This document shows positions 20,608-41,267 of a stretch of DNA of 64,000 bases, in pieces. The translations under genes and the position numbers were made by a program. This DNA comes from a virus. The notes below the pieces were generated by a model, which searched no databases, was not told the origin of the DNA, and saw only the letters and a program-made list of their open reading frames with translations. Numbering within the stretch: the first letter of the stretch is position 1; each line of letters begins with the position of its first letter. The stretch is taken from IMG/VR virus record IMGVR_UViG_3300003629_000001. The stretch is one strand, 5' to 3'.

Positions 20608-23600
20608 ATGAGCCTGACCAAAGACCTTGCGGACGCACTCGCTGGTACGGTAGCCAAACAACACCCGGCTTTTCGGAGTAGTACCAACTGGCTTCCGTAT
20701 CGTGGCCCGCGAGGTGGGGAAGGGTACATCAACACCTACACCGGCGACGTAGTGTACGGAAGTGACCGGCCCGGTGGCGGGTGGGACAGTGACGGCGAGA
20801 TTGAGGTAGACGAGTCGTTCCGTGCCGCCCCTGACGGCTACGAGTGGGAGCGCCCACCGATGAACTACGACGTGAAAGACGAGATTGACGAAGCCAACCC
20901 GGACAACGTAGACGGCTTCCTCGAAGCGAAGTTCAGTGGCGACCAAGTTATCTACGAAGACGGTCAAGGTGAAGAGGCCCCGCACAGTTGGGGTCGCGTC
21001 ACTGGTGCGCGTGTGGATACGTACACCAATCTCGGTGGTCATGAAGTGACGGGTGTCGTTCTCGAACTTGAATCGGGTGACGACGTGCCATTAAATCGTG
21101 TCTTGAAGCACGTCAATACGTCACAAGACCCGAAATACGAAGCGTGGCAACTGGCCGACGACAATCCCCACGAAGACGATTTGGAAGACGTAAGCGAGAA
21201 AGTCTATCATTCGTTCTCTCACGACGAGTTCGAGTGGAAAGAGTACGCTGACTGGCGAAATGACGCCAAAACGCTCCCTGTTCTTTCTGAACATGGTGCT
21301 GACGATTTGTGGAAAGCCATGAGCGCGTACTTCGACCGTGAGTCCATGAACGACCTACGGGCGGATTTAGCCAGTTGGAAGAGCGACAGTGACCGTGGCA
21401 CTGGCCGTTACTCCGACATTGCGAAAGAGGTGTTCGAGATTGACGCGGTGTCTCGGGATAATCGCTACGGGGAAGAATGGGATACAAGCAACGAGGAAGA
21501 CTTTAAACGGGCGGTAGAAATTCTCTCTGACGCATCTCGTCGGTTTTACGAAGACCAGTACGAGAGCGACGACCTGTTCCGTGGAATCTCCCGACACGGC
21601 TTTCGGAGTCTCGTCAAGGGGTGGCTGGAAAACCCCGGCGCTGACGAGTTCGAGGTGGAACACAGGGCGCTCGCCAACTACTCCGCCGACCACCGGGTCG
21701 CCCGTGATTGGGCTGGGAATACGGTTGTCATTCAGCCGGATATTGACCCGGAAGACATAGTGCTGGCTATCGACGGCTTGAATTTCTCCGGTGTCCACAA
21801 CACGGAATCCGAGGTGCATATGCGGGGCGACCGGATTACCCTCAAGCCTGACGACGTGAAACTCAAGACACGCCGAGATACACAGGGTCGAACATCATGG
21901 CCGGAACGAAAGGCTGGGTTAAGCGAACCAGCCGAGAACTGGTCAGCGAACGACGCGGAGAACTTCAGTAGGGCTATCAGTCTAATCTACGACGACGAAA
22001 CGCCTGACGAGGAAACCGCGCTTCGCTTCCTACGTATCGCCAAGGCTCACGAAGACCACATTGAAGACAAACTAAACAGCGACCGCTTCAATTTCGAGCG
22101 CGACAGGTTCTTTACGACGGGAACCGCTGGCCCCGGTGAAGCCCACGGCGAAGTGATTGAGTGGGAAAACGAGTATCTGGACTTACTCGGTCGTATCGAA
22201 GCGGAACACGGCCTCAATCTATCCAGCGTAGAGAAGGCCGAGAATCCGCCCGGTTCGCCTGACGAGACGCCGGTTGTAGACTTGACCGAGGATTGGTTCT
22301 TGTCCCCGGAACACCGTGACGACCCGGAGAGAGCCGAGAAACAGGTACAGAACGTCATGGGCGAGTGGGTTCCGTACCAAGGCCCCCGAGGTGGCGAAGG
22401 CTGGCAACGGATTAGCGACCAAGAGGTAGTGTATCAAGACGACCCGCCCGGTGACGTAGTGGAAGGCGTCGAAGAGAACTTTTGGGAGCGCTACGGTGAA
22501 GGCGACGAGTCCCAAGACACCAGCGGATACTATGACGCTGACGAGTGGGACGACGCTTTTGAGGGCATGAATATTGCCGCTCCGTCTGACGTTCCCGAGG
22601 GGGCTGAAATCTACTATATCTCGTCGGTCGGTAATCACCACGAAGGACGCGTTGTGGGCTATGAATACGGTGAGAACATCGAAGGCGCTGACCCAACGCC
22701 CGCGTATCTCAAAGTCGTTGGTGACGACGGTTACGAAGCCTCTGTCACGGCTGACCAGATTCAAGAGATTACGGATATGCCGCATGAGGCCGAAGTACCC
22801 GAGTTCGAGTGGGATACAGATATTCCACCGATTAACGAACTACAGGAAGGCGCTGACGTGCTGTACGAAGGCGAGAACGGCATTCGTCGTGTTGGCGAAT
22901 ACGAACGTCCGACGTTCGTTCAGACGGAAGAAGGGACGTTTGGTGGTGTTGTTCTCGAAGACGGAACCGAGATTCGGCTACAAGATATGGTGGCCGTGGA
23001 CGAAGGGCCGGTTCCGCTTGAACCCCGAGAAGACCCCTTCGAGTTCGAGTCGGTGGTCAACGAGGGCGATTTCCGTGGATTCCGCGCTCCTGACGAGACG
23101 TGGGACAACCTACTCGAATTTACCCCGTTTGACGGCCTTGGCGAAGTTCCGCTGGGTGCGACGGTGGAGTTCGATACTCCGAAACTGAACGGAACGATTG
23201 AGGGTGAAGTGACTGGGTACATCGACTACGACGCGTCGATAGGCGAAACGAACTCGCTACGCGTCCAGACCGAAGACGATTACGTGGGAGAAACGACAGT
23301 AGGGCCGAGTAATTTCGTTCGATTCATTGGCCCTGAAGGCGACCAAGATTTATCGCTGGAAGAGTATCTGTCCAATCCGTTTGCACACGCTCACAAGGTC
23401 GAAGGCTCTCGGGAAGCCGGTATCACTGGCGGGAACACGACTGGGGAGAAAATGAAAATCGCTACCATGCCGGACGACTCGCTAATCTTTGCGACTCCGG
23501 TGGAAGCCTACAATCATATCACAACGGGCGTGGTTGATAGTGCGGCTGAAGCACGCGAGAACAATCTGAATAGCCCTATTATGATTGACCACCTCGGCGG

Positions 23601-24741
23601 GGGAGCGTGTAAAACACGAATCGTGGAAGGGCCGGACGGAGGTGAGTATATCGCTAAAGAGGGTATCGAAGGCGACGACTTGAGAAGCCGCCAGTGGTCG
23701 ATAGACGAAAACGACGACGCTGAACTTATGGACTCCCTCGCTCGCACTTCGGCGGCGGCGTTCTTTGTTGGCAATCAAGACCTTCACTCTCACAATATCC
23801 GGGTCAACTTCGATACACAGGAAGCGACTGTAATCGACCACGACGCCGCTGGTGGGAGTCATTTTGGTAGTTTCATGGACGTTAACAGAGTTGTCAACGA
23901 CCCGCTTAGTACCTCTCAAGTCGAAAACGAGATATACGATATTGCGCGGGATTATATGAGAGGCGACCTTGACGTTCCCGAGGAACTGAAAGGAACGAAC
24001 CACGAATCCTACTTCAAGGACGCCATAGACAAACTGGCGAACGACGAAAGCCATTCAGACCTATTTGAACCGTGGGGCGGCGACCCGCACAGTCTTCCGC
24101 GTCATGCGGATAGCATGGACGACTTTCAGGAAGGGCAAGAAGTGACAGTTCTGACGAGTGACGGACACGTTCGCACAGGAGAACTCACCCAGTTCTATCA
24201 AGGGACTTGGTATGGTGAGACGGACGACAACTACGAAATTTCGTTCGATATGCCGCACCACGTTCTCTCGTCCGAAGAGCCAAAAATTCCGATTGAACCG
24301 ACCGAAGAATCGGCGGCGCTCATGGACGCACTGGCTGACCGAGAGGATTCATACGACTCCTTAACCGACCTTGAACCCGGTATGGGTATCACGATTAATC
24401 AGGGGTTTAGCGACGAAGAGGTGCTGGTTGAAGAGGTGAAAACGGACGGCCCGGTGACTCAAGTAGAAGTTCGTCCGACTGACGGTGGCGACCCATTCCA
24501 CGTCAATCAGTGGGACGACGTAGTTCAGGTTGGACGGGAACGGAACTGGAATGGTGAGTTGGACGACCTAAACACTGGTGAAGAGATTCGGGTCGAAGAC
24601 GAAGACGGTGAAGAGATTAGCGGGACGTTCATGGGCTACGACGCTGACAGCGGAGAGGTAGAAATCCAAGACGCACCGGGACGGATTGTCACGGTGGACG
24701 CGCCACGTAACGTCCAGCGGTTGACGGGTGATTCAGAATGA
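20608..24741 (+). CDS. Array protein 6: polyprotein with 2 WIPY tags, ART-like domain, kinase and beta-barrel repeats
   Basis: Tags at 20689 and 22366. ART LFRG..ANYS..ESE at ~21575-21815. Kinase GNQDLHSHN..VIDHD at ~23770-23845. Confidence 0.75.
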   Translation: MSLTKDLADALAGTVAKQHPAFRSSTNWLPYRGPRGGEGYINTYTGDVVYGSDRPGGGWDSDGEIEVDESFRAAPDGYEWERPPMNYDVKDEIDEANPDNVDGFLEAKFSGDQVIYEDGQGEEAPHSWGRVTGARVDTYTNLGGHEVTGVVLELESGDDVPLNRVLKHVNTSQDPKYEAWQLADDNPHEDDLEDVSEKVYHSFSHDEFEWKEYADWRNDAKTLPVLSEHGADDLWKAMSAYFDRESMNDLRADLASWKSDSDRGTGRYSDIAKEVFEIDAVSRDNRYGEEWDTSNEEDFKRAVEILSDASRRFYEDQYESDDLFRGISRHGFRSLVKGWLENPGADEFEVEHRALANYSADHRVARDWAGNTVVIQPDIDPEDIVLAIDGLNFSGVHNTESEVHMRGDRITLKPDDVKLKTRRDTQGRTSWPERKAGLSEPAENWSANDAENFSRAISLIYDDETPDEETALRFLRIAKAHEDHIEDKLNSDRFNFERDRFFTTGTAGPGEAHGEVIEWENEYLDLLGRIEAEHGLNLSSVEKAENPPGSPDETPVVDLTEDWFLSPEHRDDPERAEKQVQNVMGEWVPYQGPRGGEGWQRISDQEVVYQDDPPGDVVEGVEENFWERYGEGDESQDTSGYYDADEWDDAFEGMNIAAPSDVPEGAEIYYISSVGNHHEGRVVGYEYGENIEGADPTPAYLKVVGDDGYEASVTADQIQEITDMPHEAEVPEFEWDTDIPPINELQEGADVLYEGENGIRRVGEYERPTFVQTEEGTFGGVVLEDGTEIRLQDMVAVDEGPVPLEPREDPFEFESVVNEGDFRGFRAPDETWDNLLEFTPFDGLGEVPLGATVEFDTPKLNGTIEGEVTGYIDYDASIGETNSLRVQTEDDYVGETTVGPSNFVRFIGPEGDQDLSLEEYLSNPFAHAHKVEGSREAGITGGNTTGEKMKIATMPDDSLIFATPVEAYNHITTGVVDSAAEARENNLNSPIMIDHLGGGACKTRIVEGPDGGEYIAKEGIEGDDLRSRQWSIDENDDAELMDSLARTSAAAFFVGNQDLHSHNIRVNFDTQEATVIDHDAAGGSHFGSFMDVNRVVNDPLSTSQVENEIYDIARDYMRGDLDVPEELKGTNHESYFKDAIDKLANDESHSDLFEPWGGDPHSLPRHADSMDDFQEGQEVTVLTSDGHVRTGELTQFYQGTWYGETDDNYEISFDMPHHVLSSEEPKIPIEPTEESAALMDALADREDSYDSLTDLEPGMGITINQGFSDEEVLVEEVKTDGPVTQVEVRPTDGGDPFHVNQWDDVVQVGRERNWNGELDDLNTGEEIRVEDEDGEEISGTFMGYDADSGEVEIQDAPGRIVTVDAPRNVQRLTGDSE

Positions 24742-27700
24742 CAGTAGTTGTATATGAACTGAACGACGACGCGGAGTACGAGGAACTGGGTAGCCATACC
24801 GACCAAGAGGCCGTGGAGAACGACGACCTACTGGATATTTTTCCTGAACAGGTGTGGCAAGACCACTCCGACGAATGGCTCTCCGAGCGGATTGACGGCC
24901 CTTACGTCATGGCCGCAATTCAGGACGAAGACTCCGAGACGACAGAGAAAATCAGTATGTGGACACCCTACGTCGGCCCGAACGGTGGCGAGGGCTACCA
25001 ACATATGCTGACTGACGAAGTTCGTTACGTGGACGAGGAACCCACTGACGACGAAGCACCCGGCAATGACGTTGACGTAGACGAACCCGAGAGCGGTGAA
25101 CTGAACGAAATGACCGGGATTTCGGACGCGTCGTATATTGAAGACAATCTTCCGGTCACGGCGACGTGGGAGAATGACGACGGTGAATCATTCGTTGGTC
25201 AAATCGAAGAGGTGGATTACGGCGGCTTTGACGAGAAGTTTGTAATTGCCGCTACCAACGGACGGCGCTACGAGGTGAATGGTGACGATTTGACCGGGTA
25301 TATCGAACCCACGCCGGAATACAACCCGGAAAGTGACGAGGAAGACGGACGGATTCGGGACGGATTCGAGCGGATAAAGGAAAAACTTGGCGAGGGTGTG
25401 ATTCCACCGCGTCCAACTCCCAATATGGGTAATGGTGGCTCTCGTCCCGAACAGAGCGATTTCCGACAAATCGCGTCGGAAGACGACGCCGAGAAACTAC
25501 AGCAGATTATCGACACTGGCGACACTGGGAATATTCAGGTCGGAATCGAAGCCGTCGGTGACGGAGTAGACTACGGCCCGTGGGACGCTGATACGGATAA
25601 TCTCAATTACTTCGACGGCGGTCAGTTCACGAACATCGACGTGGAAATGCCGGTCGAAGATTTCCTTGCCACACAAACGGATATGTTGTCGTCTGACCGG
25701 AACCATCCACAAGAAGCCTACGAGTCGTTCCACCGAGTTCGGACTGACGACGTAGAAGAGTACGCCGAGGTGTTACAGAACGAACCGGGTGAAATGCCCA
25801 TGCCGTACATTGAGTTCGGTCGCAACGGCAATATGCGGAACTCACAGGAAGGCCGACACCGCGCTCTCGCGGCGCGTATGGCTGGGTTAGATACCATGCC
25901 GGTTCGGTTCGTTCTAAACCCCGACCGCGACGGAAAAGGCGCTGAAGACCGTGTTGACTGGGGTCAGGATTTGAGTAAGCCGGTGGAGAAACGCACAAAG
26001 TGGCGTCCATATCTCGGCCCGCGTGGTGGTGAAGGCTGGATTAAGCCGTTCAGTTTCACCGACGACAAAATTGTCTACGACGAAGAACCACCGGGTGAAG
26101 TATCGCCGGAGTACAGCGAGGATTACTGGCACGACCGCCCGTCTCCGGTCAACGAAGATATTGTTAATTTGGTGGATTCGCACCTCGAAGGCGTTCGAGC
26201 GCGTCCGTACAAGTTGGACGAACCGACAGCGGATTTCTTCGAGGAAGGACTGGAAGCCGGGTATCACCCGAACGCCGTTTCCGAAGCCGCTGAATGGAAA
26301 CTGAAAAGCATGGAAAAGGAGATTGGGGACGGTGGGCGACTCGAAGAGAACGACGTTCAGAAGGTACTCCGAGACGCCGCTACCCAGTTCCTTGACCGCC
26401 AAACCGAGCAAGAGATAGAGATAGAAGGTGGCAAACGAGGTGGTGGGGTTATCTCTCTCGGTGAAATTGACAACAACTTCAAACGAGACTGGTGGGATAA
26501 CTTCGAGTCTGAAATAGGCTACACCGACGACCAAATGACGAACGAGAAGCCTGCTTACAGTGCTATTCGCAACTGGTCTATCACCAGTAGTATGTTCAGT
26601 CAGTCTACAGCGCCACTAATCAAAGCGGCCATGCGAGAGAGCGACAACGATTTCATTCCGGTCAACGGCGAAGAGGTGCGTGAGACAGACGTAACCGACC
26701 GAGAAATCGAACACGTTCTCGAATACAAAGAGGCCATGACTGAACTGTACCGGAGCGTCTACGGTGACACGGTTCCGTGTTTCCGTGGCATTGACGGTCA
26801 GAGTAGTCAAATCGACGGAATGCGCGAAGATATACAGGAAGGCAAGGGTATCGAACTTCCTGAAGCCACCCTCTCTTCGTGGGCGACGGAACCCGGAACC
26901 GCCATGCGATTCGCCGGGAGCATCCACACTGACGGCTACAGCGAAGGTGGTGTCGTGATTCGTCAAGAGGTTCCGGTTGAACAACTATTCGTGACTGGCG
27001 ACACTCACCCCGGCCTTCTTAATAACGAGAACGAACTTGTTGTTAACGCGCCGGAACCCGAGACGCGCTACGAACCCGACAACCTGATTCTCCCGAGTGA
27101 GACGACAGCACTCGAACAGGCGGTGTGGGCGGCGGAACGTGCTAATAGGGATACTGACGTGAGCGAGGAAGCCGCGAAGGCTGTCCAGCGAGCGCTCCTT
27201 TCCAAACAGGAAATGAACCAGTACGCTTCAATCGCAATCGAAAACTACGATTGGTTCCGTCAGACTGTCGGTGAGCAAACCCAACCCGACATTAAGTCGA
27301 AAGAGTGGATTCCGTATGAAGGGCCACGGGGCGGTGAAGGGTGGCAAAATACGGAAGACCGAGACGATATTCGATATGGGCTGGAAGACCCGCCCGGTGA
27401 AGTGGCCGAGGGGTACGAAGACATGGCCGAAGACTGGGGGGCGGGAGAAGACGCTGTAGAAATCCCCGAGAAGTTCGAGGGAGAGTACGCCCCGGAAGAC
27501 ATTACGCCGATTCCCGGCGACCCTGCTGAATGGGGTGACGAGTTCCCAATTAGTGAAGGACAGACACTACTCGGTCAAAATTGGGAATGGGATATAGAAA
27601 ATCTCTGGTTCCAAGGTAGCGATACACACGTTCCTGAACCTCGAATGGAATTAGCAATTCCGACTGGTGTTAGTCACAAATTTGGTTACGTATCCGATTC

Positions 27701-30700
27701 CGTGAAGTTACAGGGTATGGAACCCGGTTGGTTCAAGAATCCGGCTATCCCCAGCAAGCAAAACAAGCAAGAGTTCGTCGGAGTCGTCGGAGAACCTGAA
27801 CCACGAGATATGAGTTTCAACCCGACTGGTGAAGCGGCGAATGCTTCGTTTGATTTAGACGAAGCGGCTGAAAGAATGAGTCAGGAGATTCGTGACCGCA
27901 ATTCGTGGGAAAACAAAAAGGCTGGAATTTACGCGGCTGAACTAATAGAAGAGCATGACCCGAGTTACGAAACGCTACTCGCTATCACTCGTTACGGGCT
28001 GGAATCAAATGGTCAGAGTATAAACGAAGACCGCGATATAGACGACGCTCAAGAAATTGTCTTGGACGGTATCGACCAACACCTTGACAATGAAGCACCT
28101 GACCACCCCACGCTCAAGGGCAAACTGTCGTTAAGTCACGCTGACCCCGAATTGACCGAAGATTTCATGAGTCGTATGACACCCGATACCCGAGAGACTG
28201 TCAATACGGCTATGGGTGAATGGATTCGTGGTCAGGGGAGTATGGTGGACGAGTACACACTTCCAATTTACCGACTGGCCGCTCACACCTACGAGAACGA
28301 TTTCTACCCGACGCGTGGTGACGTAGGGAAACTCATTGCGGAAGCCGACGACGTGGAAGCCGCTGACAGTCTCGAAGTTCGTCAAGAGAGGCTGGAACGC
28401 TATCGTCAAAAGACCGTAGAGACGTTCCGTGAAGTGTTCGGTGATACCGTTCCGGTGTTTCGTGGCTACGACCCCGGTGAACAATCCAAAGGTAAAGAAG
28501 CACGGGAAGCGCTACAGGCTGAAGACGCCCCGTCAGAGATAGAGATTCGTAATGGTGTGGCGAACTCATGGTCTACAAACCCGACCGTCGCATTTCAGTT
28601 TTCGACGTGGAATACCGAAGATTACCCCGGTATTGTTGTCCGCCAAGAACTCCCCGTTGAACAAATATTCGGGTCGTCTGATACCACTACCAGTGGTCGG
28701 TCTGACGAAGCGGAAATCGTTGCTGGCAATCCTGAAGAGTACACTAACCACAGCCGCGACGACGTATTCCTTCCCGAAGAGTTCGACCCGATTGAGCAAA
28801 TGCGGTGGGCGCTTTCGGGTATCGAAAATGACGCCAGTGAAGAGGAAGAGAAGGCTGACGGGGAAACGCTATCACTTGACTGGGAACTCGAATCGGTTGA
28901 CTGGCTACGTCGTTACCGGAAGATGGAAGACGCACTCACGAAAGAAAACTGGACTCCTATAGACGTAGGCGACCAGAGAGGCTACCAGCACGTCGTCAGC
29001 GGAGAGACGATAGTATCCAAGGCTGGTATCCCGTTCAGCAACACGGCGCGTCAGGCGGGCCACACGCCGCTGTCAGCGGTGGTTATGGACTCCGACGCAC
29101 TGGGGAAAGAGTGGGTTCCATATCACGGCCCACGGGGCGGTGAAGGGTGGCGGAATACAACGACCGAGAATATCCGCTACGGACTGGACGAAGCACCGCG
29201 CCCAGCCGAGAACGACCCCGACGAACTCACCGAAGAGAACATCGAAGAGGCTGATATTCAACAGTCGTTCGGCCTCATGCAAACTACAGCCAACGACTTG
29301 GTAGAAGGTGAGAAACTACACTTCGAGGTTCAAGGCCACCCCTACGAAACCCGCGTTCAGGAAGTGACCGACGACGCGATTCACGCGATAGACACCGAGA
29401 CGCACCGCGAGTTCGAGATTCCGACCGACGAGCGAGGAATGGCCGAAAGCGGGCTAACACTGGCTTCGCCACAAGCGGTATTCTTCGGCCACGGTATCGC
29501 TGGGTCGGAGTCGTCGTGGCTACCCGAGGAAGACGAACCGAGTCAGATAGAACTCGAAGCCGAAGCGCTTCGTTCCGCCGCGTCCACCGACGGATTCGGT
29601 GATACCAGTTACATTGAAGGCTTCGCCGCACGGGCGAGTGAACTCGGTGCTGGACGTGACGAGATTACCAACGCGATTCACGGCGCTCTCGAAGAACACC
29701 CCGCACTGAACACGGATTTGGCCGACGAGATTTACGAGAACGGTCAGCGGCTATTGGAAATCGAAGAGTCGCTGACGGACAAGTCACTCGCTCGCTCCTA
29801 TCCCATTACCCCTATCAGGACTATGCGGAAGGAGTGGATTCCGTACCGTGGCCCACAGGACGGAGAGGGCTGGCAAAACGTCAACAATCCCGACGACATT
29901 CGATACGGACTCGAAGACCCGCCCGGTGAAGTGGCTGAAGGCTACGAAGAACAGGCGGAAGACTGGGGGCCGAGTAGCGACGAGGAACCCGACCGAGTTC
30001 AGGGCGCGACCCTCGTAGACTACAACATTCCGGGGAGCGACAAGGACATTCAAGTCCCGAAAAACTTCACGGCTGACGACTTGAAGAACACCATTCGGCG
30101 GTTCCGAGACGACAACGAAGGCGACCTACTCACGGAACTGGCGAACGTCGTTCAAATGCAAAACGACGGCAACCTAAACGACAAGATGGACGTGCTTCAT
30201 GGCACGGCTGAAGTGCTGGGGAACCACCCGGAGATTATCGACCAGTACAACGACCTGCTACACGAAGAGATAGCCGATACTCCAAACGCCAACTTCGACG
30301 TACCATTCGGCTTCGACGGTGTGGACGTTCACAATATGCTGGAAGACACCTTTGGCCCCCACAGTGAGATTGTGGGTGAACTCGAAGATATGGTTCTGTT
30401 CGGGGACGTGGACGAAGAAAAAGCCGACAACTGGATTACCGCCGCCGAAGGCTGGATTCGTAACTACGGCGACCGGAAAATGGCGGACAAGTTCAAGGAT
30501 ACCATAGCCGACGCGGAGTTGGCGAATCCGTTCTCAAACACCGACGAGTACGCCGCACAGGAAGAGATTAGCGACGACCTAAACCCAGCAAAAGCGTCCC
30601 GAGTTGTGCCTATTTCGGATACTGAAGCGTCTACGGGTATCAGCGCTGACAGTATGTTCATAGCCGAGTACGACGACGGACACCGAGCATTCGTCACCAA

Positions 30701-31319: not shown

Positions 31320-33652
31320 CCGTCACCTTCTACGAACTCGGTGAAAACGACTACACCGAAATTGGTCGTATCCACGACGGAGAAATCGTAGACGGCGAAG
31401 ACCAACTGGTCGCAATCGGCGCTGACCAGTTCGCGGACAACGAAAAGAAACTACTGAACGTCTACGATGGGCCGTACATCGTTGCTGGAATTGGGACGCC
31501 TAATACCCTTACTCAAAAGTCGGACAAGGCACTTCGGAAGAGCGTCGAAACAGTCTTCAAAGACTGGATTCCCTACGAGGGGCCACAGGGCGGGGAAGGC
31601 TGGCAAAACACCCTGACAGGCGAAATCCGCTATCAGGAAGGGAAGCCGAGTGGCGCGGGAAGTGACGCCGACGTTACTGTCCCCGGCAACTCTACGATAC
31701 AGACTGTCTCGGCGGCTATCACGTCAGTCCTCGGCGCGACAGTCATGCAATCGCTCAAGCAACAGGCGACCGGTGGCGGTGGGTCATTCAACCCACAGAC
31801 GTTCGTGACCGCCGCCGCCATGTATATCGCACAGACTGGTAAGGGGTCGCTCGGAGAACTACAGGAAGCGTTGGATACCGAAGCCGAGAGCGAACCCGAA
31901 GACGCTCAAGACGTGACGATTCAGACCGAGAGTGGCGAAATCGAATCTACGACTCAAACGGGTGTCACCGACGTAACGAGCGCGATTACACAAGTCTCGT
32001 CGGAAGAGACGGTCGCTCGTCTCGGCATGACCATGAGCGAGGAAGAGAAGGAAGACCCCGAAGCGTGGATTCGGGCGTTTGGTGATAGCGTTACTGAAGA
32101 AGCCAACCAGAACTTCCAAGACGCTCTGGACGAGCGGATTCGTGAACGGACGGTTTCGACTGACAAGTACCGGGGTGGTGTCGTTGTTCCGAACGAGGTG
32201 ACGACGGAACAGGTGAGAGAGGCTATGGGAGCGACGATGGACGCCGAGACGGTAGAATGGCTGTCCGGGGCTATGGAAAACAGCCCCGCCGTAGACGGGA
32301 ACGACCCCGACTCATGGGTACGGGCGGCTCTCACACAGATTGGTGACGATAGCGAACAACGTACCGAGTTCCAGAACCAGTTCGACGTTTCCGCCGCTGT
32401 ATCCGAAGAGGGTGACGGCGACGTTGGGACTGTCACCATGTCGGGTGGCGGTGAGAGTATCGAAATGCCGACGAACACCAGCGCTGAAGAGGCACGGGCC
32501 GCTGTCGAAGAGACGCTGGGTCAGGACTTTCTCACCCACACAGCGGGCTTCATGGAAGACCAAGGCGCGGACGTAGAAGACCCGAAGCAGTGGGTCATGA
32601 ACGGGCTGACGCTCTCTCAAATCGCCAACCCGGAAGGCTTCGAGACGACTGTCAGCGAAATGCAAGACAGTCTGATTGAAACCAACGAGGAACCCGAAGA
32701 GAGCCGGGCGACTCAAGTCGTGACGGAACACGACGCCGAGGGTGACTGGCAATCATTCGTAGACCCAGTGACCGACCTGCTGGAAGAGGGCGAGAGCGCT
32801 GGCGACATTGTTCAGAGTCTCAAAGAAGACGCCGAAATCGACGGCCACCCGCTTCAAGACGAGCAAATTCGGACACTCGCGTTCGAGGCTCACAAGGAAG
32901 CCAGCGAGCGGAATCCGCCCGGTGTAGACGAGACACCGGACACGCCGTCGCTCGCTATGGACTGGGGTAACGAGTTCCCTGAAGCCATGCGCGACCGTAT
33001 GCAAGAGAACCACCCCGAAGCCTACGAGCAACTGAACGAGTCCTTTGAACCGTGGTCAGACGACCCCCACAGCGAGGAAATGAACTCGTTCTGGAACTAC
33101 GCGGTTCAGCACAGTGGGAACGGGAACATTCCCGAAATGGAAGGCCGCCCGGAGAACGTCACGCAAGAAGAGGTAGAGGCCGTACAACGGCTACACGAAG
33201 TGACACAGGATACGCTCACCGAACTCTACGGGGACACCGTACCGCTCTTCCGTCCGGTGGGTGGAAGCGCCGCGAGTGAACTCAAAAACGCAAAGGAGAG
33301 CGACGAAGACGACGATATTCAGTTCACCCACCGCCCGGCTGAATCGTGGTCGGGCGACATTGAGCAAATCGCGCAACGGACAGACTTTGAAGACGGTGAA
33401 TCGGTTGTCATTCGACGCGAAGTACCTACGGAAGACGTACTGGCGTCGTCTGTTACCGGGTCGCCGGGACTGGACGCACAAGACAACGAGTTCGTCGTCT
33501 CGTCGCCAACAGAGACGGAGTACAAACGAGGTGACGTGTTGACTGGCGACGACCTGAAAGACCCACAGGCAACGATGGAACAGGCGGCGTGGGCGAATAA
33601 GACCACTGGCGGGACGGAGCAAACGGAAGCAAACGAGGAAGGTGGAGAGTAA
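31316..33652 (+). CDS. Array protein 8: DGP domain + WIPY tag + helical repeats + divergent ART-like domain
   Basis: YDGPYIVA, tag at 31565, VPLFRP..ESWS..VVIRREVP..DNEFVV. Confidence 0.7.
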   Translation: MTVTFYELGENDYTEIGRIHDGEIVDGEDQLVAIGADQFADNEKKLLNVYDGPYIVAGIGTPNTLTQKSDKALRKSVETVFKDWIPYEGPQGGEGWQNTLTGEIRYQEGKPSGAGSDADVTVPGNSTIQTVSAAITSVLGATVMQSLKQQATGGGGSFNPQTFVTAAAMYIAQTGKGSLGELQEALDTEAESEPEDAQDVTIQTESGEIESTTQTGVTDVTSAITQVSSEETVARLGMTMSEEEKEDPEAWIRAFGDSVTEEANQNFQDALDERIRERTVSTDKYRGGVVVPNEVTTEQVREAMGATMDAETVEWLSGAMENSPAVDGNDPDSWVRAALTQIGDDSEQRTEFQNQFDVSAAVSEEGDGDVGTVTMSGGGESIEMPTNTSAEEARAAVEETLGQDFLTHTAGFMEDQGADVEDPKQWVMNGLTLSQIANPEGFETTVSEMQDSLIETNEEPEESRATQVVTEHDAEGDWQSFVDPVTDLLEEGESAGDIVQSLKEDAEIDGHPLQDEQIRTLAFEAHKEASERNPPGVDETPDTPSLAMDWGNEFPEAMRDRMQENHPEAYEQLNESFEPWSDDPHSEEMNSFWNYAVQHSGNGNIPEMEGRPENVTQEEVEAVQRLHEVTQDTLTELYGDTVPLFRPVGGSAASELKNAKESDEDDDIQFTHRPAESWSGDIEQIAQRTDFEDGESVVIRREVPTEDVLASSVTGSPGLDAQDNEFVVSSPTETEYKRGDVLTGDDLKDPQATMEQAAWANKTTGGTEQTEANEEGGE

Positions 33653-35394
33653 TGGTGAAAATCGACGCGTCGGAGTACGAGACGAACTGGCTCACTGACA
33701 GTCCCGAAAAGGAAGGTCAGCCGAACGACGACGAGGAAGTGGCGGAGTCTGACAGTACCCCTACTGAAGAAAATCAGGCCCAGCAAGCCACGAAGGCGCT
33801 CAAGTCCGCTTTGGATTCTACCTTCGAGAAAGACGAGTGGATTCCCTATGAAGGGCCGGAAGGTGGTGAGGGGTGGCAAAATACTCAAGACCCGGACGAT
33901 ATTCGATATGGACTTGACGAACCGCCGGGTGAAGTAGCCGATGGGTACGAAGAGCAAGCGGAAGACTGGGGTGAGAGCAACGAGGAAGACAACGAAGACG
34001 GCGGTTCAGAACTCGGGAACTTCCTTGACGAACTCAGTCATACAGAGGCCAAAGAACCAATTGAACAGGATATACACTCGGTAGCGTCGGATACCGATAC
34101 CAGCCCCGAAGAGGTTGCTGGTCGCCTTCACGACCGACTTGAGCAACGCCAAGACCGAATCGGGAATTTAGACCAAGCCAACACCGAGCAATTTTCCGGG
34201 TTGGCGAACTCTATGCTCGAAAACATCGGGGAAGAGATAATCGAAGAGCGTAACCGAGATGAGTTGACGGAAGCGGTCGAAGGATACGACGAACTCACCT
34301 CTACGAAGGTCACGAATCATTACATCGACAGTGCGGTCGAACAGGTTCAGGAATCGACTGACTGGGGACGTGACGAACTTCGCCAAGACCTACTATCGCA
34401 CCTCGGAGAAGAGGGCGTTGACCCCGAAATCGCGCTGGACGAAGAGGAAGGGTTGGAAGAGTGGGCTGAAGCCAAAATTCAAGAAGCCGAGGAAGGCGCT
34501 GACGCTCCGTCTGACGTTCCTGACGGCTGGGGGAAACCCGAGGAAGTGACGTTCGGAGAATGGACGGAGTTCGAGCAAGGTGACGCCCAGTTCCTCGAAC
34601 ACGGTGATAGGGTTACTGGTACTCGCAACGGCGACGAGTTCGAGGGAACGGTTCGACACACTCCCGAAGACGGACTGGTCGGTATCGAAATGGACGAAGG
34701 TCACGTTCAGACAGTCGAAACGTGGGATATAGACCAGTACCAGAGTCAAGACCGTGACTTGGACGAGACACGCGACGAACTCCGTGACCACTTCAGCAAT
34801 ATCAGCCAGCACAACCAGTCGCTACAAGAGTACACGGGCCAAGCCCACCGAGAAATCAACGGCCATATGCGAGATACCGCGAAAGAGGTAGAAGCGGACT
34901 CGAAGGGGAAACTCGAACACGCTATTATGGCTACTGCTGACGCTGATACCGCTCGGGTAATCAGCGACGTGCAAGCGGCGACAAAACAGACACTCCCCCG
35001 AGAAATGAACGTCGCTCGGGGTATCGACGTGGACGCTGGGTCGTTCATGGACAAGGCTGAAGAGGCTATGGAATCGGGCGGAGCGCTCATGGACGAAGGC
35101 TTCCAAAGCGCGACGATTGACCGAGACGTGGCGGAAGGCTTCGGCAACATCACACTGGACATTCAGACCGACCACGGCGTCTACGCACGGGCCGCCAGCG
35201 AGTTCGCTGGGGAAGACGAAGTGCTACTCCCCGCCGGGACGCAATACGAGGTGAAAGACGTTGACAGGGAGAACAACACCGTCAGCGTCGAAGCCTACGG
35301 CGGATTCAGTTTCAACGTGGACGTGGGCCACGTTCGGGAACTGATTCACGAAGAGGGAATGTCCTACGAAGAGGCAATGGAATATGTCAGATAG
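33652..35394 (+). CDS. Array protein 9: WIPY tag + helical domain + VIP2/C3-like ADP-ribosyltransferase
   Basis: Tag at 33838. YT..INGHMR..VARG..DEGFQSAT..EDEVLLPAG gives the R-S-E triad. Confidence 0.85.
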   Translation: MVKIDASEYETNWLTDSPEKEGQPNDDEEVAESDSTPTEENQAQQATKALKSALDSTFEKDEWIPYEGPEGGEGWQNTQDPDDIRYGLDEPPGEVADGYEEQAEDWGESNEEDNEDGGSELGNFLDELSHTEAKEPIEQDIHSVASDTDTSPEEVAGRLHDRLEQRQDRIGNLDQANTEQFSGLANSMLENIGEEIIEERNRDELTEAVEGYDELTSTKVTNHYIDSAVEQVQESTDWGRDELRQDLLSHLGEEGVDPEIALDEEEGLEEWAEAKIQEAEEGADAPSDVPDGWGKPEEVTFGEWTEFEQGDAQFLEHGDRVTGTRNGDEFEGTVRHTPEDGLVGIEMDEGHVQTVETWDIDQYQSQDRDLDETRDELRDHFSNISQHNQSLQEYTGQAHREINGHMRDTAKEVEADSKGKLEHAIMATADADTARVISDVQAATKQTLPREMNVARGIDVDAGSFMDKAEEAMESGGALMDEGFQSATIDRDVAEGFGNITLDIQTDHGVYARAASEFAGEDEVLLPAGTQYEVKDVDRENNTVSVEAYGGFSFNVDVGHVRELIHEEGMSYEEAMEYVR

Positions 35395-36400
35395 TGAAAA
35401 ATACACAGCGGAAGGCGAAGACATTCGAGTCGTTGGCCCCGAGTGGGGCGAAGAAGACGAGGAAGTGACCACCGAGAAGAACTGGATTCCATATCGCGGC
35501 CCACAAGGCGGCGAAGGCTGGCAAGACACACAGAATCCTAACGACGTTCGGTACGACCTTGACGAACCACCGGGGACAGTGGCCGCTGGGTATAGCGAAG
35601 ACCACTGGGAAATGGACGACCGAAGCACCAGCGTCGAAGACAGTGAAATGGGCTACGTCTCTGAAGGTGCTGGTGGGCCGTCTCTGGACGTTGCCACTGC
35701 TGACCACGCACAGTCCTTACACGAAGCCGGAGCGTCAGAGGGCGCGTCCTCGCGCCATATGCACGTTGCTACGTGGGAGTCCGAAGACGGAGAGCCACGC
35801 CGAGCGTTCGTAACGAACTACGGGCCGGACATGAGACGGAACGAGACAGGCGAGAAACCGCTATTAGGTGAGCGTGCAATCGCCGCTGACGCGTTCTTCC
35901 GCAACATGGGATTCGACCCGCCAAAGCACTTCCTGAACCGCCAGCAACGCTATCTCGCGGTCGAAGGCAAGGACGGGAAGGAAGTACGACACGCTCCCGA
36001 CGAGTGGAAAGAGAACATCGACCGCGACGGAGTGCTGAATTTCGCCGCAACAGCGATTATTGCTGGCAACTCCGACCTTCACCCGAAGAACGTGCTGGTC
36101 AACGAGAACGGTGAGTTCTTCGCGGTGGACTTGGACAAGTCGGGTGGAGATTTCGCTAACGGCCCCGACCGGTTCCAACGCCGTGGATTCCAGTCGATTA
36201 CGTGGACAGCCCGAAACCTCGGTCATAGTCTCTCAAAGGAAGAAATCGACCAACGCGCACAGGAGTTGTGCCGAGATATGGATATTGACCGAATGACCGA
36301 GAACGTTCAAAACAGTACGTGGTCACGGAAAGGCCGACACCAGTTCCGTGATAACATTATTACCAACATTAAAGCACTACGCGAAGGAAGCCTACTGTAA
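35384..36400 (+). CDS. Array protein 10: WIPY tag + HipA/PI3K-like kinase
   Basis: Tag at 35483, kinase motifs GNSDLHPKNV..AVDLD. Confidence 0.8.
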   Translation: MSDSEKYTAEGEDIRVVGPEWGEEDEEVTTEKNWIPYRGPQGGEGWQDTQNPNDVRYDLDEPPGTVAAGYSEDHWEMDDRSTSVEDSEMGYVSEGAGGPSLDVATADHAQSLHEAGASEGASSRHMHVATWESEDGEPRRAFVTNYGPDMRRNETGEKPLLGERAIAADAFFRNMGFDPPKHFLNRQQRYLAVEGKDGKEVRHAPDEWKENIDRDGVLNFAATAIIAGNSDLHPKNVLVNENGEFFAVDLDKSGGDFANGPDRFQRRGFQSITWTARNLGHSLSKEEIDQRAQELCRDMDIDRMTENVQNSTWSRKGRHQFRDNIITNIKALREGSLL

Positions 36401-39400
36401 TGGCTGTCGTTATCGAAGAGTTCGACATAGGAGATATGTCGTGGTCTACCCTCGGTCGCATTGAAGATGGGGAAATTGTGGCCGACGGCGACGGGTTCCT
36501 TTCCGAACTCCTTTCTGACGACGAACTCGGTGACGAAGACGAACTACTGAATCGGTTCAACGGCCCGCGTCTTGTCGCCTATCGTGATAGGGGTACTCTC
36601 GGGAAAAACTGGATTCCGTATCAAGGGCCGATGGGTGGCGAGGGGTGGCAAAACGCGAACGACCCTGACGATATTCGCTACGTAGACGACCCACCCGGAG
36701 AAATCGAAGAGGGGTACGAGGAACAGGCGGAAGGGTGGGGTGAGAGTGACCAAGAGCGTTTTGTCAACGCTGTGGAAGAAGAATACGGAGTTTTCGCCAG
36801 TTCCCTCGCCAACGCGTTCACCGAAGAGACGGTTCTGAAAGACCCCTACGATTCGGGCTACGTAAAACTCGCCGCGAAGGTGGTCTTTGGTGAAAATTAC
36901 CCGGACGAGTCGGTTGCGGAATACTACGAAGAGTTTCGAGAACTCACGAATCTGGATACCATTCAGACGCCGCGAGAAGCGACGATGGACGTTATAGCGG
37001 CAATTGACGAACTCGAACCCACCAAGTCGCAAAAGAATCAGGCACTTGACGCGTTGCGTGACCGGTACAATATCATGCAATCCGCTGACGGGTTGCCTCA
37101 AGTACCGCTGGAAGACAAGGGGCCAAGGGACTGGAAAGAACACGTCCCCGGTCGTGGCGAAGATTACGACTGGGGGACAGTGAACACGCAAGACGCTGTT
37201 CTCTATCAAACCGAAGACGGCCTCATGAATGGCCGAATCTGGAAGTATGAGGGCGAAGACGACCAAGACGTACTCTACACACTGGAAAACGGCGAGACTC
37301 TGTATCACGAAGAGATTGAGGCGTTCTACCCCAACGAGAAAGAAGCGCTCCGGGTCGGTTCAAACGCTCGCGTTTCCGAGGGCAACTTCCTCACTTTCGA
37401 GATTGACGGAACCCCGTATCAAGGAGAAGTATCGACAATTGCGGCGCGTGACGGTCAAAGAGTCGAAGCACTGATTTCGACGCCGGGGGCTATGGTTCGA
37501 CTTTCATCTACTACTGAAGAAGGCCGTGACCCACAACTTGAGTCCGTTCAGGGTGACGACATAGAAATCATCGAACGACAACGAACCCTTCCTGACGATT
37601 TTGAGGGAATGGCGGAAGGCGTCAATCGGGAAGCGGACGCGGTTGCACGCGACATTACGGATAATCTCGGTGACGAGTGGCATAGAAGTATGTCGCTTGA
37701 GCGAGACGTGCAAAATGAGTTAGAGAAATACTTCTCTTCGACCGCTGTCAGTCAGTTTTACGAAGCCGTCAACGACTGGAAACAGGACGCTTCAAGTGGC
37801 CTCTCCGGCCTTCACGCGTCGTCTTTCCAAGAAGCGCTGGATATACACAGCCCCGCTCGCGGGTGGGACGAACCCAGCAAAGAGAACGTTCAGGTAGCGA
37901 AGGTCATGTACGAAGTGAGTCAGGAATACCTGAAAAAGACTCACGGAAGTAGCGTTCGCTTACACCGAGGAATGTCTAACACCGGATTCCGTCGGTTGAT
38001 GGACACATGGTTAGAGAACCCGAACGCTGACGAATACGACTTGAGTCAAATGGCGTTGAACAACTATACGCCACAGGTGGGTATTGCTGAAGGATTCGCA
38101 CACGATACGGCTGTCGTCACCAGTCGTGTCAGTACAGACAATATCGCGTTCGCTATGGACGCCCTCGCCGCTCGCTCAATGGACAACGAAGGCGAGGTTC
38201 ACGTCATGGGCGACGGTATGACGGTTGACCACAGCGATATTGCGTTCGGTGAACACCGAATCGAACTTGACGAGTTCCCCGACGGCTGGTCGCTTGAAGA
38301 GCATGAAGACATGGTGGAACAACTCAAGCACCACTACGCTGGTCGAATGCCGCTTCCGAAAGAAAGCCACGAAGAAATCTTCCAGAAGTGGGCGGAATCA
38401 GTCAAAGAGAACCACCCCGAACTGGTCGAAGGCCCGAATCCCAACCCCGAGATACAAGAACTCGTCAAGACAATCGAAACTGACGCATTCCTACAGTACG
38501 AGGTTCGACAAGGGCCACAGACCCAACTGGACGAGTTCGAGGATAAGCAGGACTCGAACCCAGTTATCGACCTAACTGACGACGCGTCCGCTCGGTGGTC
38601 GGCCTATGACCCCGCCGAGATTCCCGACACAGTGAAAGAGACGAAATGGAACCAGTACCGGAACTGGCAACAGAGTCTACAGGAGAAATCCAGTAGCCCC
38701 ATTGGAAAAGCGTGGATTCCCTACGAAGGCCCGCGAGGTGGGGAAGGTTGGCAAAGTGCGAACGACCCGAACAAAGTCGTCTACCAGCAAGAGCCGCCGG
38801 GGGAAGTGGCCGACGAGTACGACGCCGACCACTGGGAAGAGTATCCGAGTGACGGTAACTGGCCCGAATCGCCACACGGAACGCCGTGGGAACAGCCACA
38901 GGGCTTCGGACGAGACGCGGGTATGCAACTCACCGACGCGGTGGCGTTTATCAACTACGACGACGAGGTAGTGGCTGGCGAAATTGCGGAGTTCAACGAC
39001 GACGAGAAGACGTACAAACTCGAAAATGGCTACGTAATCAGCCACAGTCAGGTCGTCGGCTGGTCGCAACCGCCCGAAGGTGAGCGCGTCGAAACGTCTG
39101 TTGGTATGGTTACTGAAGGCGACTGGATTACCTACGACACGTCCTACAGCGAAGACCACGTTGCACAGATTTCCGACATAGAAATCAACGACGACAAAGA
39201 CATTATCTCGGTCGTTGGGGAACACGGTTATTACGAGATTGAGGTGTCCGGGCGTCCGAACAACCGCAACGAGTTCAACGCTAAAGTTCAGCGTATCCAC
39301 ACCGAGGAACCCGACCTGTTCGAGAACGTCGAACAGAATGGCATGGCTATGGAAACCGACGATATTGTCGGTGAAATGAGCGAGCGAATCGACCTGAAAG

Positions 39401-41226
39401 ACACCATGCACCAGAGCGACCAACTCAAGCAAGAGCAACGCGAGAATATCCGAAACACGCTTGAGACATACTTCCCTGAACAGTACGTCAACGCGTACTA
39501 CGGGTCTATAGAGTCGTGGAAGGTCAACAACGCGGCTGGAAGTGCTGAAGAACACGAAACGGCGTTCAAGGAAGCACTGGGTATCGAATCGCCGTCGCAC
39601 GCTGAAGCACTACACGACAAAGAGCCGTCTACAGCGGCGAAGGCACACCAGAAGATAGCGAAGGTCATGGCTGACCTCTCTGACGAATACTGGGAAGCAA
39701 ACTTCGGTGGCCGCGCCGAGGTACATCGTGGTATCTCGAACACGGCATTCGAGAATCTATTCCCCCAGTGGCTTGAGACACCCAACGCGACGAAGTACAA
39801 CGTCAAGCAACTCGCTCTGAACAACTTCAGCCGGAGTCGGCATACGGCCAACGGATTCGGGGAACGTACTGCTGTCGTAACGCTGGACGCCGACAAGGAC
39901 GACGTGGTGCTATGCACAGACGCGATTAGTAATATCGGTACTGTGCAAGACGAAGCCGAAATTCAGATTCATGGTGACGACCAATCGGTTGACGCACGCG
40001 GTATCGACCTGTTTGGGAAAGATGGGCCGACGCTGGGCGAACACCCTTCGGAGTGGGAGAAGGGCGAACACGTAGAGTTCGGTCAATTTCTGACCGGCTA
40101 CTATATGCGGAAAACAGACGACGTGGAAGAAGGCGAAGCGCCGATTCCCGAAAAGCACTACAAGACGCTTCTTGAGTGGACGCGAGCGCTGACCGAAACG
40201 TATCCTGACTTGGCACGTCGTCAGCCCACTCTCAATAGCCTTACCAGAGAGATTGAGCAAGACGCCGATACCTACTTCGGACTCGGCCCGCTCGGAAAGC
40301 AGTACACCGGTACGTTCACCGAAGAGACGACTGACAGCACGGAATATCCTACTATCGACTTGACTGACGAAGCGTCCGCGACATGGCTCTCTGACGCCAG
40401 TCAGAAACCCGAGCGAGAAGACATTTCACCCCAGCTATTCGAGCAACTGGTCGAAGCCAATCGCAAACGCCGAGAATCTATCAATACGGATACTGACGAA
40501 AGTGACACTGGCCCCATGCGGTTGAAGGGCCGTGTGGAAGTAGGGGCATTGAACAAACCGGACTGGAATCCGGTCAAGGACAGCACCCTTCAGAAAGCGA
40601 GTGACAACTTCCTGAAAGTTGACGACCTGCTACTGGACGCGTGGGAAAAACAAGTGTGCGCGGATTCGATTGAGAAAGCACCCGAAATGTGGCAACGGGG
40701 AGATAACGTCCCTCAATTCGTCCGCACGTTCGTCGCACAGGCCGCGACCAAACGAGACGCCCTGTGGGACGAATACAACGACGTGCCGCACATGGCGGCG
40801 CTGAAAGTCCATGAGATAATCAAGGACAACGTGACGAGCGACGGGTGGTCTATCAAAACCATAGCGGACGACCTGACTGACGAGTTCGAGGGTATCAGTA
40901 AGCGCCAAGCCGAAACAATTGCTCGCACCGAGGTAGCCGCTGTGCTAAACGACGCACGGGCTATGGCGTACAAGTCGTCGGATTACGACCTTCAATTTTA
41001 CTGGTCAGGGCCACAGGACGAACACACGACTGATATTTGCACCGAGGTAAAGCAAGAAATAGAGAATCGTGGTGGCTACGTCAGTATGGATACTCTGAAG
41101 AAAATTCTTCGAGAGAAAGCCCGGAAGCACCGCGACGACGGTGGGACGCCGGAGAGAGTGTCAAGTTATTTACCACATTTCAACTGTAGACACACGTTAG
41201 TTAGAAGCGAGTTCCGCTGGACGTAG
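36400..41226 (+). CDS. Array protein 11: DGP domain, 2 WIPY tags, 2 ART-like domains and C-terminal MuF (SPP1 gp7-like) domain
   Basis: Tags at 36610 and 38713. ARTs HRG..LNNY..EGE and HRG..LNNF..EAE. MuF motifs AETIARTE..W..D..T..IC..PHFNCRH. Confidence 0.85.
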   Translation: MAVVIEEFDIGDMSWSTLGRIEDGEIVADGDGFLSELLSDDELGDEDELLNRFNGPRLVAYRDRGTLGKNWIPYQGPMGGEGWQNANDPDDIRYVDDPPGEIEEGYEEQAEGWGESDQERFVNAVEEEYGVFASSLANAFTEETVLKDPYDSGYVKLAAKVVFGENYPDESVAEYYEEFRELTNLDTIQTPREATMDVIAAIDELEPTKSQKNQALDALRDRYNIMQSADGLPQVPLEDKGPRDWKEHVPGRGEDYDWGTVNTQDAVLYQTEDGLMNGRIWKYEGEDDQDVLYTLENGETLYHEEIEAFYPNEKEALRVGSNARVSEGNFLTFEIDGTPYQGEVSTIAARDGQRVEALISTPGAMVRLSSTTEEGRDPQLESVQGDDIEIIERQRTLPDDFEGMAEGVNREADAVARDITDNLGDEWHRSMSLERDVQNELEKYFSSTAVSQFYEAVNDWKQDASSGLSGLHASSFQEALDIHSPARGWDEPSKENVQVAKVMYEVSQEYLKKTHGSSVRLHRGMSNTGFRRLMDTWLENPNADEYDLSQMALNNYTPQVGIAEGFAHDTAVVTSRVSTDNIAFAMDALAARSMDNEGEVHVMGDGMTVDHSDIAFGEHRIELDEFPDGWSLEEHEDMVEQLKHHYAGRMPLPKESHEEIFQKWAESVKENHPELVEGPNPNPEIQELVKTIETDAFLQYEVRQGPQTQLDEFEDKQDSNPVIDLTDDASARWSAYDPAEIPDTVKETKWNQYRNWQQSLQEKSSSPIGKAWIPYEGPRGGEGWQSANDPNKVVYQQEPPGEVADEYDADHWEEYPSDGNWPESPHGTPWEQPQGFGRDAGMQLTDAVAFINYDDEVVAGEIAEFNDDEKTYKLENGYVISHSQVVGWSQPPEGERVETSVGMVTEGDWITYDTSYSEDHVAQISDIEINDDKDIISVVGEHGYYEIEVSGRPNNRNEFNAKVQRIHTEEPDLFENVEQNGMAMETDDIVGEMSERIDLKDTMHQSDQLKQEQRENIRNTLETYFPEQYVNAYYGSIESWKVNNAAGSAEEHETAFKEALGIESPSHAEALHDKEPSTAAKAHQKIAKVMADLSDEYWEANFGGRAEVHRGISNTAFENLFPQWLETPNATKYNVKQLALNNFSRSRHTANGFGERTAVVTLDADKDDVVLCTDAISNIGTVQDEAEIQIHGDDQSVDARGIDLFGKDGPTLGEHPSEWEKGEHVEFGQFLTGYYMRKTDDVEEGEAPIPEKHYKTLLEWTRALTETYPDLARRQPTLNSLTREIEQDADTYFGLGPLGKQYTGTFTEETTDSTEYPTIDLTDEASATWLSDASQKPEREDISPQLFEQLVEANRKRRESINTDTDESDTGPMRLKGRVEVGALNKPDWNPVKDSTLQKASDNFLKVDDLLLDAWEKQVCADSIEKAPEMWQRGDNVPQFVRTFVAQAATKRDALWDEYNDVPHMAALKVHEIIKDNVTSDGWSIKTIADDLTDEFEGISKRQAETIARTEVAAVLNDARAMAYKSSDYDLQFYWSGPQDEHTTDICTEVKQEIENRGGYVSMDTLKKILREKARKHRDDGGTPERVSSYLPHFNCRHTLVRSEFRWT

Positions 41227-41267
41227 CCAACCAAATCTTCTTGACTGTCGCCATACTGTTGTACGGT

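Follow-up and report, generated by a model that had tools for sequence, protein, structure and literature searches.

A conserved peptide that follows ADP-ribosyltransferase domains in the head-cargo polyproteins of a haloarchaeal tailed virus: a possible docking latch

What keeps a virus's arsenal of toxic enzymes harmless during virion assembly is a largely open question. It is raised by the head-cargo region of an HCTV-1-related haloarchaeal tailed virus (genome 100,408 bp), which we analysed in a stretch of 64,000 nucleotides from IMG/VR virus record IMGVR_UViG_3300003629_000001 (hereafter the window; genes are named by their start position). Very acidic giant ORFs spanning ~30 kb of the window (11479-41226) represent head-cargo polyproteins, in which six ADP-ribosyltransferase (ART) domains are each followed by a peptide of 10-14 residues, here called PEP, that bears on this question. 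On sequence comparison, PEP is conserved, ART-specific and inherited with the upstream ART; models indicate that it probably docks on this ART. Our preferred reading, held tentatively, is that PEP is a docking latch of the upstream ART, released by maturation cleavage. Inhibition and excision are plausible by analogy, with pierisin-1 as the precedent, and the steps of inhibition, cleavage and release are ones that we infer.

Cargo units are opened by a module of ~50 residues, the tag (W-x-P-Y-x-G-P-x-G-G-E-G-W ... R-Y ... P-P-G-E-V), which occurs in 15 copies in nine genes of the window, was modelled by AlphaFold2 (AF2) as a small three-stranded sheet (predicted local distance difference test score, pLDDT, ~90) and is probably a packaging or anchoring signal. 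Variant tags were seen in relatives ('D-P-S-E-A-P-E-G...E-G-P-Q-G-G-x-Y-Y' and 'W-V-x-D-P-S...R-W-x-N-T-E-T-G-E-x-R-Y'). The effectors of the cargo units comprise HipA-like kinases, a ParB-like domain, an HExxH peptidase, a VIP2-type ART recognized by Pfam and six further ARTs of two types, ART-A and ART-B. Local hidden Markov models (HMMs) detected exactly six ART-A/ART-B domains in the window, each immediately upstream of one PEP, and the PEP site is the junction at which the ART cassette, made up of a core and a helical subdomain, meets the next cargo unit (tag or MuF):

21361-22266, + strand: ART-A domain 1 (R-S-E core and helical subdomain), gene 20608-24741, aa 252-554; local-HMM span aa 252-577; A4 HMM 434.7 bits; motifs FRG / NYS / ESEV in the alignment
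22234-22236, + strand: Lys 543 (VEK-A), 11 residues before PEP1; candidate cleavage site
22270-22299, + strand: PEP1, PVVDLTEDWF; PEP HMM 7.8 bits
22366-22515, + strand: W-tag (WxPYxGPxGGEGW...) opening the unit after PEP1
26490-27224, + strand: ART-B domain 1, gene 24738-31319, aa 585-829; local-HMM span aa 585-872; A2 HMM 454.7 bits
27225-27257, + strand: PEP2, ASIAIENYDWF; LSK-Q (27204-27206) before it, the tag's KSKEW (27300-27302) after it
28128-28865, + strand: ART-B domain 2, gene 24738-31319, aa 1131-1376; local-HMM span aa 1131-1421; A2 HMM 455.8 bits
28866-28907, + strand: PEP3, TLSLDWELESVDWL; EEK-A (28851-28853) before it, a degenerate tag and then a W-tag at 29112 after it
32969-33649, + strand: ART-B domain 3, C-terminus of gene 31316-33652; local-HMM span aa 552-778; A2 HMM 317.2 bits
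33655-33693, + strand: PEP4, VKIDASEYETNWL; residues 2-14 of gene 33652-35394
37750-38559, + strand: ART-A domain 2, gene 36400-41226, aa 451-720; local-HMM span aa 451-746; A4 HMM 414.1 bits; weak Pfam DRAT match
38560-38598, + strand: PEP5, PVIDLTDDASARW; EDK-Q (38545-38547) before it, IGKAW and then the tag from 38713 after it; PEP HMM 17.5 bits
39490-40347, + strand: ART-A domain 3, gene 36400-41226, aa 1031-1316; local-HMM span aa 1031-1343; A4 HMM 455.4 bits
40348-40389, + strand: PEP6, PTIDLTDEASATWL; LGK-Q (40297-40299) before it, the MuF region instead of a tag downstream; PEP HMM 24.3 bits
40819-41049, + strand: MuF (Mu gpF-like) head-morphogenesis domain, C-terminus of gene 36400; Pfam PF04233
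Tag starts: 11551, 14025, 16583, 20689, 22366, 24960, 26001, 27306, 29112, 29835, 31565, 33838, 35483, 36610, 38713

The initial annotation, made from the sequence alone, had placed one peptide after each ART other than the VIP2-type one, and the six are indeed where it put them (three after ART-A and three after ART-B), as are the lysine sites that it quoted (VEK-A, LSK-Q, EEK-A, EDK-Q and LGK-Q). Each PEP consists of a hydrophobic beta-strand of 3-4 residues, an acidic spacer of 2-8 residues and the sequence [D/N]-W-[L/M/F]; in the ART-A type, a conserved Asp or Glu in the strand is flanked by two or three hydrophobic positions, and T, R or K comes next. Two further candidates were rejected: the C-terminus of gene 18748 ('GDWLEFERE'), which aligns with a tag start in the homolog at locus L001, and the N-terminus of gene 19805 ('PNVVDLNKQD'), which has no Trp and was not picked up by the PEP HMM. 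Gene 19805 (19805-19860) and its L001 ortholog (13802-13860, 'PQVIDLSKSD') both start with P-x-V-[IV]-D-L-x-K-x-D, resembling the strand half of PEP, and gene 19805 has no ART upstream.

The assignment of the six domains to the ARTs relies on motifs and predicted structures. The AF2 model of ART-A (domain 2, mean pLDDT 79) matched Vis (Z 8.1, root-mean-square deviation 4.1, 149 aligned), Tre1 (Z 7.3), Ia (Z 7.1), VIP2 (Z 6.8) and C2-I (Z ~7), while the 50 best VIA rows for the model of ART-B (domain 1, mean pLDDT 78, core mostly 84-97) were all R-S-E ARTs or ART-like folds (Z 5.0-6.1; Tre1 at Z 6.0) covering model residues 1-210, all of these Z values being middling by the structure-search tool's own scale. 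The best Foldseek matches were likewise all ARTs, though weak (E ~0.02). Alignments (A1, A2, A5 and A6) contain the catalytic motifs in order: HRG / NY[ST] / E-x-E-V in ART-A, and FRG or FRP / ESWS / ENE, EAE or DNE in ART-B. As judged from these motifs and models, ART-A and ART-B have the R-S-E ADP-ribosyltransferase fold. Sequence searches returned little: ART-A gave a DRAT match below the Pfam threshold (23.7 bits against a cut-off of 25) and ART-B gave zero Pfam matches; PDB sequence searches gave chance matches only, none of them relevant; pattern scans of IMG/VR with the ART-A and ART-B alignments retrieved no relatives, the tag alignment alone retrieving some; and a word-based search with ART-B, restricted to longer proteins, found nothing. 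Pfam and PHROGs together returned no named family for ART-B, the tag, gene 18748 or gene 19805.

Does the peptide belong to the ART or to the tag? We scored 54 internal tags in 66 proteins that had been retrieved by the tag alone, and found the PEP pattern before 5/7 tags following an ART versus 1/47 following other domains (Fisher p = 4e-5). A sixth ART-following PEP among these tag-selected proteins was recovered by HMM (P0164), and the single non-ART exception actually follows a short third ART subtype, so that none of the 46 tag junctions after non-ART domains carries a PEP. Moreover, the PEP subtype tracks the ART subtype across W-type, alternative and third-type tags and MuF. The possibility that PEP is a general N-terminal extension of the tag was therefore rejected, as it is missing before the 46 non-ART tags and its subtype follows the ART. 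PEP also does not behave as a capsid targeting sequence of the T4 type, expected at the N-terminus of all cargo: it is missing from most cargo N-termini and from the same 46 junctions.

Dozens of metagenomic relatives (at least 25 of them non-redundant) carry the motif behind homologous ARTs. A HMMER search with an ART-A-plus-PEP profile against 1.84 billion representatives returned 203 matches, of which those inspected were strongly acidic and many were long and multidomain. A PEP HMM trained on sequences from other genomes (16 rows) gave 30 matches of at least 6 bits in 315,000 residues, including the 16 training rows, and none at this level in shuffled or reversed copies of those residues. 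The three ART-A peptides of the window exceed chance by this measure (24.3, 17.5 and 7.8 bits). Taken as bare sequence, the three of the ART-B type score 2.0-2.5 bits or less, inside the shuffle range, and are not significant. Because a broad, ungapped, Trp-anchored HMM pooling ART-A and ART-B peptides did not separate from shuffles, the ART-B peptides of the window are not validated by sequence statistics alone; they are backed by positional homology. An ortholog with 58% identity (P0162) keeps the 'YDWFR' core ('IEDYDWFRRV'), distant ART-B relatives have the same strand-then-W-L motif ahead of the next tag, and PEP3-like peptides follow ART-B in P0171 and P0160. Among orthologs of gene 33652 (25-68% identity overall), the first 16 residues are nearly invariant (M1, K3, I4, D5, A6, S7, E8, Y9, N12, W13 and D16 are retained throughout), making PEP the best-conserved part of the N-terminus.

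In the window, PEP4 lies across a gene boundary from its ART, an arrangement which the initial annotation had taken to mean that the peptide belongs functionally to the upstream ART and which turned out to recur in several lineages. An ART-ending gene is followed by a PEP-starting gene in the window (31316/33652), at L001, in HCTV-1 (gp107/gp108, MuF) and at L007, L008, L009 and L010, the L009 and L010 pairs being orthologous ART-B-then-PEP gene pairs, as in the window. In these split pairs, PEP lies within the first 2-20 residues of the downstream gene, and at least five different lineages have the break immediately before PEP. The paired genes overlap by a few bases in the window, where the start of gene 33652 overlaps the stop of gene 31316, and at the loci with called genes. 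As in toxin-immunity systems, the candidate binder in these pairs is encoded immediately downstream of the ART, and comparison of the gene pairs supports the view that PEPs can act from the next polypeptide.

On the latch reading, PEP would fold back onto the ART to which it belongs, adding an edge strand and using the Trp as its anchor, and once docked would keep the ART latent during synthesis and packing of the cargo polyprotein. The head maturation protease would cut at the conserved upstream Lys and at the Lys before the next tag, freeing or removing PEP, and the ART would be active by the time it is ejected into a new host. In split genes, PEP would act likewise but in trans, as the N-terminal part of the translationally coupled next protein. 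The initial annotation had taken the peptides for inhibitors that are released or destroyed on capsid maturation, a coherent proposal that receives partial support here. In the ART-A model, PEP5 forms a beta-strand (residues 272-274, block pLDDT ~79) and the structural alignments to Vis, TreX/TreTu and one Scabin entry reach into PEP, which suggests that the peptide lies against the ART core in ART-A.

Docking need not imply inhibition, and the alternative that survives best, which we nonetheless consider unlikely, is that PEP is a hook at the N-terminus of the next unit that adds a strand to the preceding ART and so keeps the cargo ordered for packing or ejection. Such a hook would be consistent with the gene splits, after which the downstream protein has PEP at its very N-terminus in at least five lineages, and with cleavage at the upstream Lys, which would make PEP N-terminal; the weak binding signals (the ART-A strand and the co-fold described below) fit it as well. 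It is also supported by the distribution of PEP among ART-A domains, where it is present in 28/30 that have a downstream tag versus 11/37 (by a loose pattern) that do not, whole groups of ART-A homologs that have no following unit having no PEP either. PEP is thus not a universal partner of these ARTs, and its tie to ARTs with a following unit, like the splits that keep it on the downstream protein, pulls towards a non-inhibitory hook and leaves room for a junction-specific docking role. However, every unit has its own tag, which would make piggy-back packaging unnecessary; 0/46 non-ART junctions carry a PEP; to pass through the tail, cargo joined non-covalently would first have to come apart; and cleavage at the conserved Lys before the tag would sever the hook from its own cargo.

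The strand in the ART-A model raises a further possibility, namely that PEP is a structural accessory (an intramolecular chaperone or complementing strand) that stabilizes or folds the ART as an extra edge strand and is required for activity. The moderate confidence of that strand, the alignments to Vis, TreX and Scabin that run into PEP, and the inheritance of PEP with the ART subtype would all agree with this. One way in which the initial annotation could have been wrong was that the peptides are integral strands of the ART; the canonical fold proved to be complete before PEP. Alignments to Ia, C2-I, VIP2 and C3 run to model residues 173-174 in ART-A and to 208-210 in ART-B, where these solved ARTs themselves end or nearly end, and PEP is located 35-130 residues beyond the core. 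PEP as an integral strand was rejected on account of this and of the many ART-A homologs that lack it. The same observations (a fold complete by residue 173 in ART-A and 210 in ART-B, homologs without PEP, and the 35-130 residues and recurrent gene boundaries between core and peptide) count against an accessory strand, as does the confident modelling of the ART-B core without PEP, and we regard this role as rather unlikely.

The latch reading also calls for cleavage, for which the flanking lysines and one nearby gene are the candidates:

45376-47319, + strand: head maturation protease, candidate enzyme for the Lys sites; phrog_23555, E = 1.4e-103; homolog of HCTV-1 gp111

A Lys is present at most 16 residues upstream of PEP in 25/25 non-redundant relatives versus 43.5% expected (p = 9e-10, the sequences being related; proteome Lys content 3.3-3.5%), and in relatives it is mostly followed by A, Q or S. 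All five internal PEPs of the window have this upstream Lys, and the four that are followed by a W-tag have another Lys 2-9 residues before the tag, giving bracketed fragments of 32-85 residues. The N-terminal PEP of split genes corresponds to the product that cleavage at the upstream Lys would give in fused forms. Self-cleavage by a Thr nucleophile at 'DLT' was also considered and was rejected because the sequence is absent from the ART-B peptides. The tag-bearing cargo gene 16199 encodes a zincin-like HEFGH (HExxH) motif (~aa 470, window 17600-17640), comparable to 'HEMGHAFH' in HCTV-1 gp106, and its product may be a processing peptidase of the sort proposed for polyvalent proteins.

An invariant upstream Lys, bracketing by lysines, a head maturation protease nearby and the HExxH motif of gene 16199 could also point to PEP being a processing signal, i.e. 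an exosite through which the maturation protease or the gene 16199 peptidase is directed to cleave at Lys in ART junctions, and embedded metallopeptidases have been suggested to process polyvalent proteins (PMC5512222). Non-ART junctions, however, have Lys before their tags yet no PEP; PEP varies with the ART subtype, whereas a single protease would be expected to require uniformity; and the N-terminal PEPs of separate genes need no upstream cut. We find this role quite improbable. Finally, the acidic short linear motif with its aromatic anchor, in a low-confidence and probably disordered linker, could be a host-directed motif that attaches to a host protein and, once ejected, brings the ART or the next unit to its target, but PEP leaves the ART when genes split and varies with the ART subtype rather than with a shared host factor, making this reading very improbable. 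The spacing between the hydrophobic position and the aromatic pair in PEP does not fit that known for archaeal PIP boxes, and a PIP-box reading was rejected. The accessory, exosite and host-directed roles are all less likely than a docking latch.

Returning to the docking latch, the proposal that the peptide binds its ART was checked by co-folding for the split pair only, the natural two-chain case (ART-B of gene 31316, aa 545-778, with gene 33652, aa 1-45), and it received weak support there (score 0.42 versus 0.00 for the best of three controls). The runs share at least 40% of contacts, with a partner pLDDT of at least 40, and the mark applied is passed by 58/80 solved complexes and 2/110 mismatched pairs; scores of 0.60 or lower include 7/80 solved complexes and both passing mismatches. 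Several points weigh against a latch. The individual co-fold runs were scattered (0.42, 0.02 and 0.66), and by the calibration of the tool so weak a pass is more often wrong than right unless binding was likely beforehand. The AF2 model of ART-B leaves the PEP region undocked, at a pLDDT below 50. Many ART-A relatives lack PEP, and such enzymes therefore need no latch in general. In gene splits, PEP has stayed with the downstream protein in at least five cases and with the ART protein in a single one, P0012, which ends right after PEP; as a cis-inhibitor would be expected to stay with its ART, this weighs against a pure cis-inhibitor. Our searches returned no specificity data for the head maturation protease, whose cleavage at Lys is putative. 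Lastly, the conservation and association statistics given above count related sequences, which are not independent.

A broader version of the latch reading, which we consider doubtful, is a modular cargo grammar in which each effector class would have its own following element, placed at the start of the next unit, acting as a minimal immunity, in cis or in trans, and stripped at Lys by the maturation protease. If this were true, capsid maturation would be the switch that arms the whole toxin arsenal. The class-specific elements proposed may include PEP after ART-A, ART-B and the third short ART subtype. HipA-like kinases of the cargo region are, every one, at a gene end, and genes after kinase-ending genes (13515, 16199, 24738, 31316 and 36400) have an N-terminal domain of ~60 residues (M-x-V-V-x-Y-E-L ... 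D-G-P-Y/H), which is also found at L010:5703, after the kinase C-terminus of P0166; this domain may be the kinase-specific counterpart of PEP. The gene after the VIP2-type ART starts with 'GEDIRVVGPE' in the window (35384-35480) and with 'GDDFELVSPE' at L009 (3904-4050), two examples of the pattern 'G-[ED]-D-[IF]-x-[VL]-V-x-P-E', and a separate peptide in this position is a hint that every effector class may be followed by an element of its own. A ParB/DdrB-like sequence ('QEGRHRALAA') in a cargo unit of gene 24738 (~aa 375-395, window 25850-25960), kept in P0161, P0162, P0165 and P0168, has no PEP after it.

The surrounding genes place this region in the head module. The gene order is terminase (6000), portal (8025), acidic giant ORFs, HNH endonuclease, head maturation protease (45376) and capsid protein, the major capsid protein being ~65% identical to its counterparts in HCTV-1, HVTV-1 and HCTV-5, and the C-terminal MuF domain of gene 36400 has 46% identity with the HCTV-1 gpF-like protein. 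The HNH endonuclease gene (41241-41987) lies between MuF and the protease. From portal to protease, the cargo region is about three times larger than in HCTV-1 (L006 14594-24324, ~10 kb). The proteins of window genes 31316, 33652 and 36400 are also encoded on a 145,854-bp contig, which may represent a different assembly, a concatemer or an integrated copy.

Should PEP prove inhibitory, R-S-E ARTs would have a minimal peptide inhibitor, and maturation of the capsid would serve as an activation switch in an archaeal virus; a PEP that only docks would show how the polyprotein cargo is organized. Either way, PEP is a usable marker of unit boundaries in unannotated giant proteins. As PEP is defined by its sequence and is found on a separate protein as well as in cis, the latch question is testable with a synthetic peptide and a recombinant domain.

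The closest precedent is pierisin-1, in which a linker after the ART fills the catalytic cleft and is freed by proteolysis, activating the enzyme (PMC8883491). By analogy, the candidate controlling segment described here lies C-terminal to an R-S-E type ART. Unlike the pierisin-1 linker, PEP is a conserved motif of 10-14 residues located 35-130 residues past the core at viral polyprotein junctions, and it can sit on the next polypeptide. The mosquitocidal toxin MTX has an autoinhibitory linker of the pierisin-1 type. As in the Tre1-Tri1 (PDB 6dre) and TreX-TriX pairs, the candidate binder is encoded immediately downstream of the ART; unlike these, there is no separate immunity domain, the peptide being fused to the next cargo protein or present in cis. 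In Tri1, it is an N-terminal extension that occludes the active site.

The capsid targeting sequence of T4 (internal proteins, Alt) is a short cargo peptide removed by the prohead protease after packaging; it sits at the N-terminus of each cargo protein and directs it to the scaffold core. PEP, in contrast, follows ARTs only and is mostly internal, the more likely signal for packaging being the tag. Polyvalent and MuF-associated head-packaged effectors of phages have been described (Iyer et al. 2017, PMC5512222; PMC9503650) and are similarly large multidomain head-module proteins with ARTs, ParB-like, kinase-like and peptidase domains and MuF, the polyvalent proteins being thought to be packaged, processed and injected (PMC5512222; PMC9503650). 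Term searches of these two articles found no ART-tied peptide, no repeated tag module and no haloarchaeal example. Gene 36400 differs from the polyvalent/MuF systems in that its MuF domain is C-terminal and its effectors are N-terminal. Head-packaged ARTs, MuF fusions and polyvalent proteins are already known; what may be new, going by these term searches, is the ART-tied peptide together with the tag grammar.

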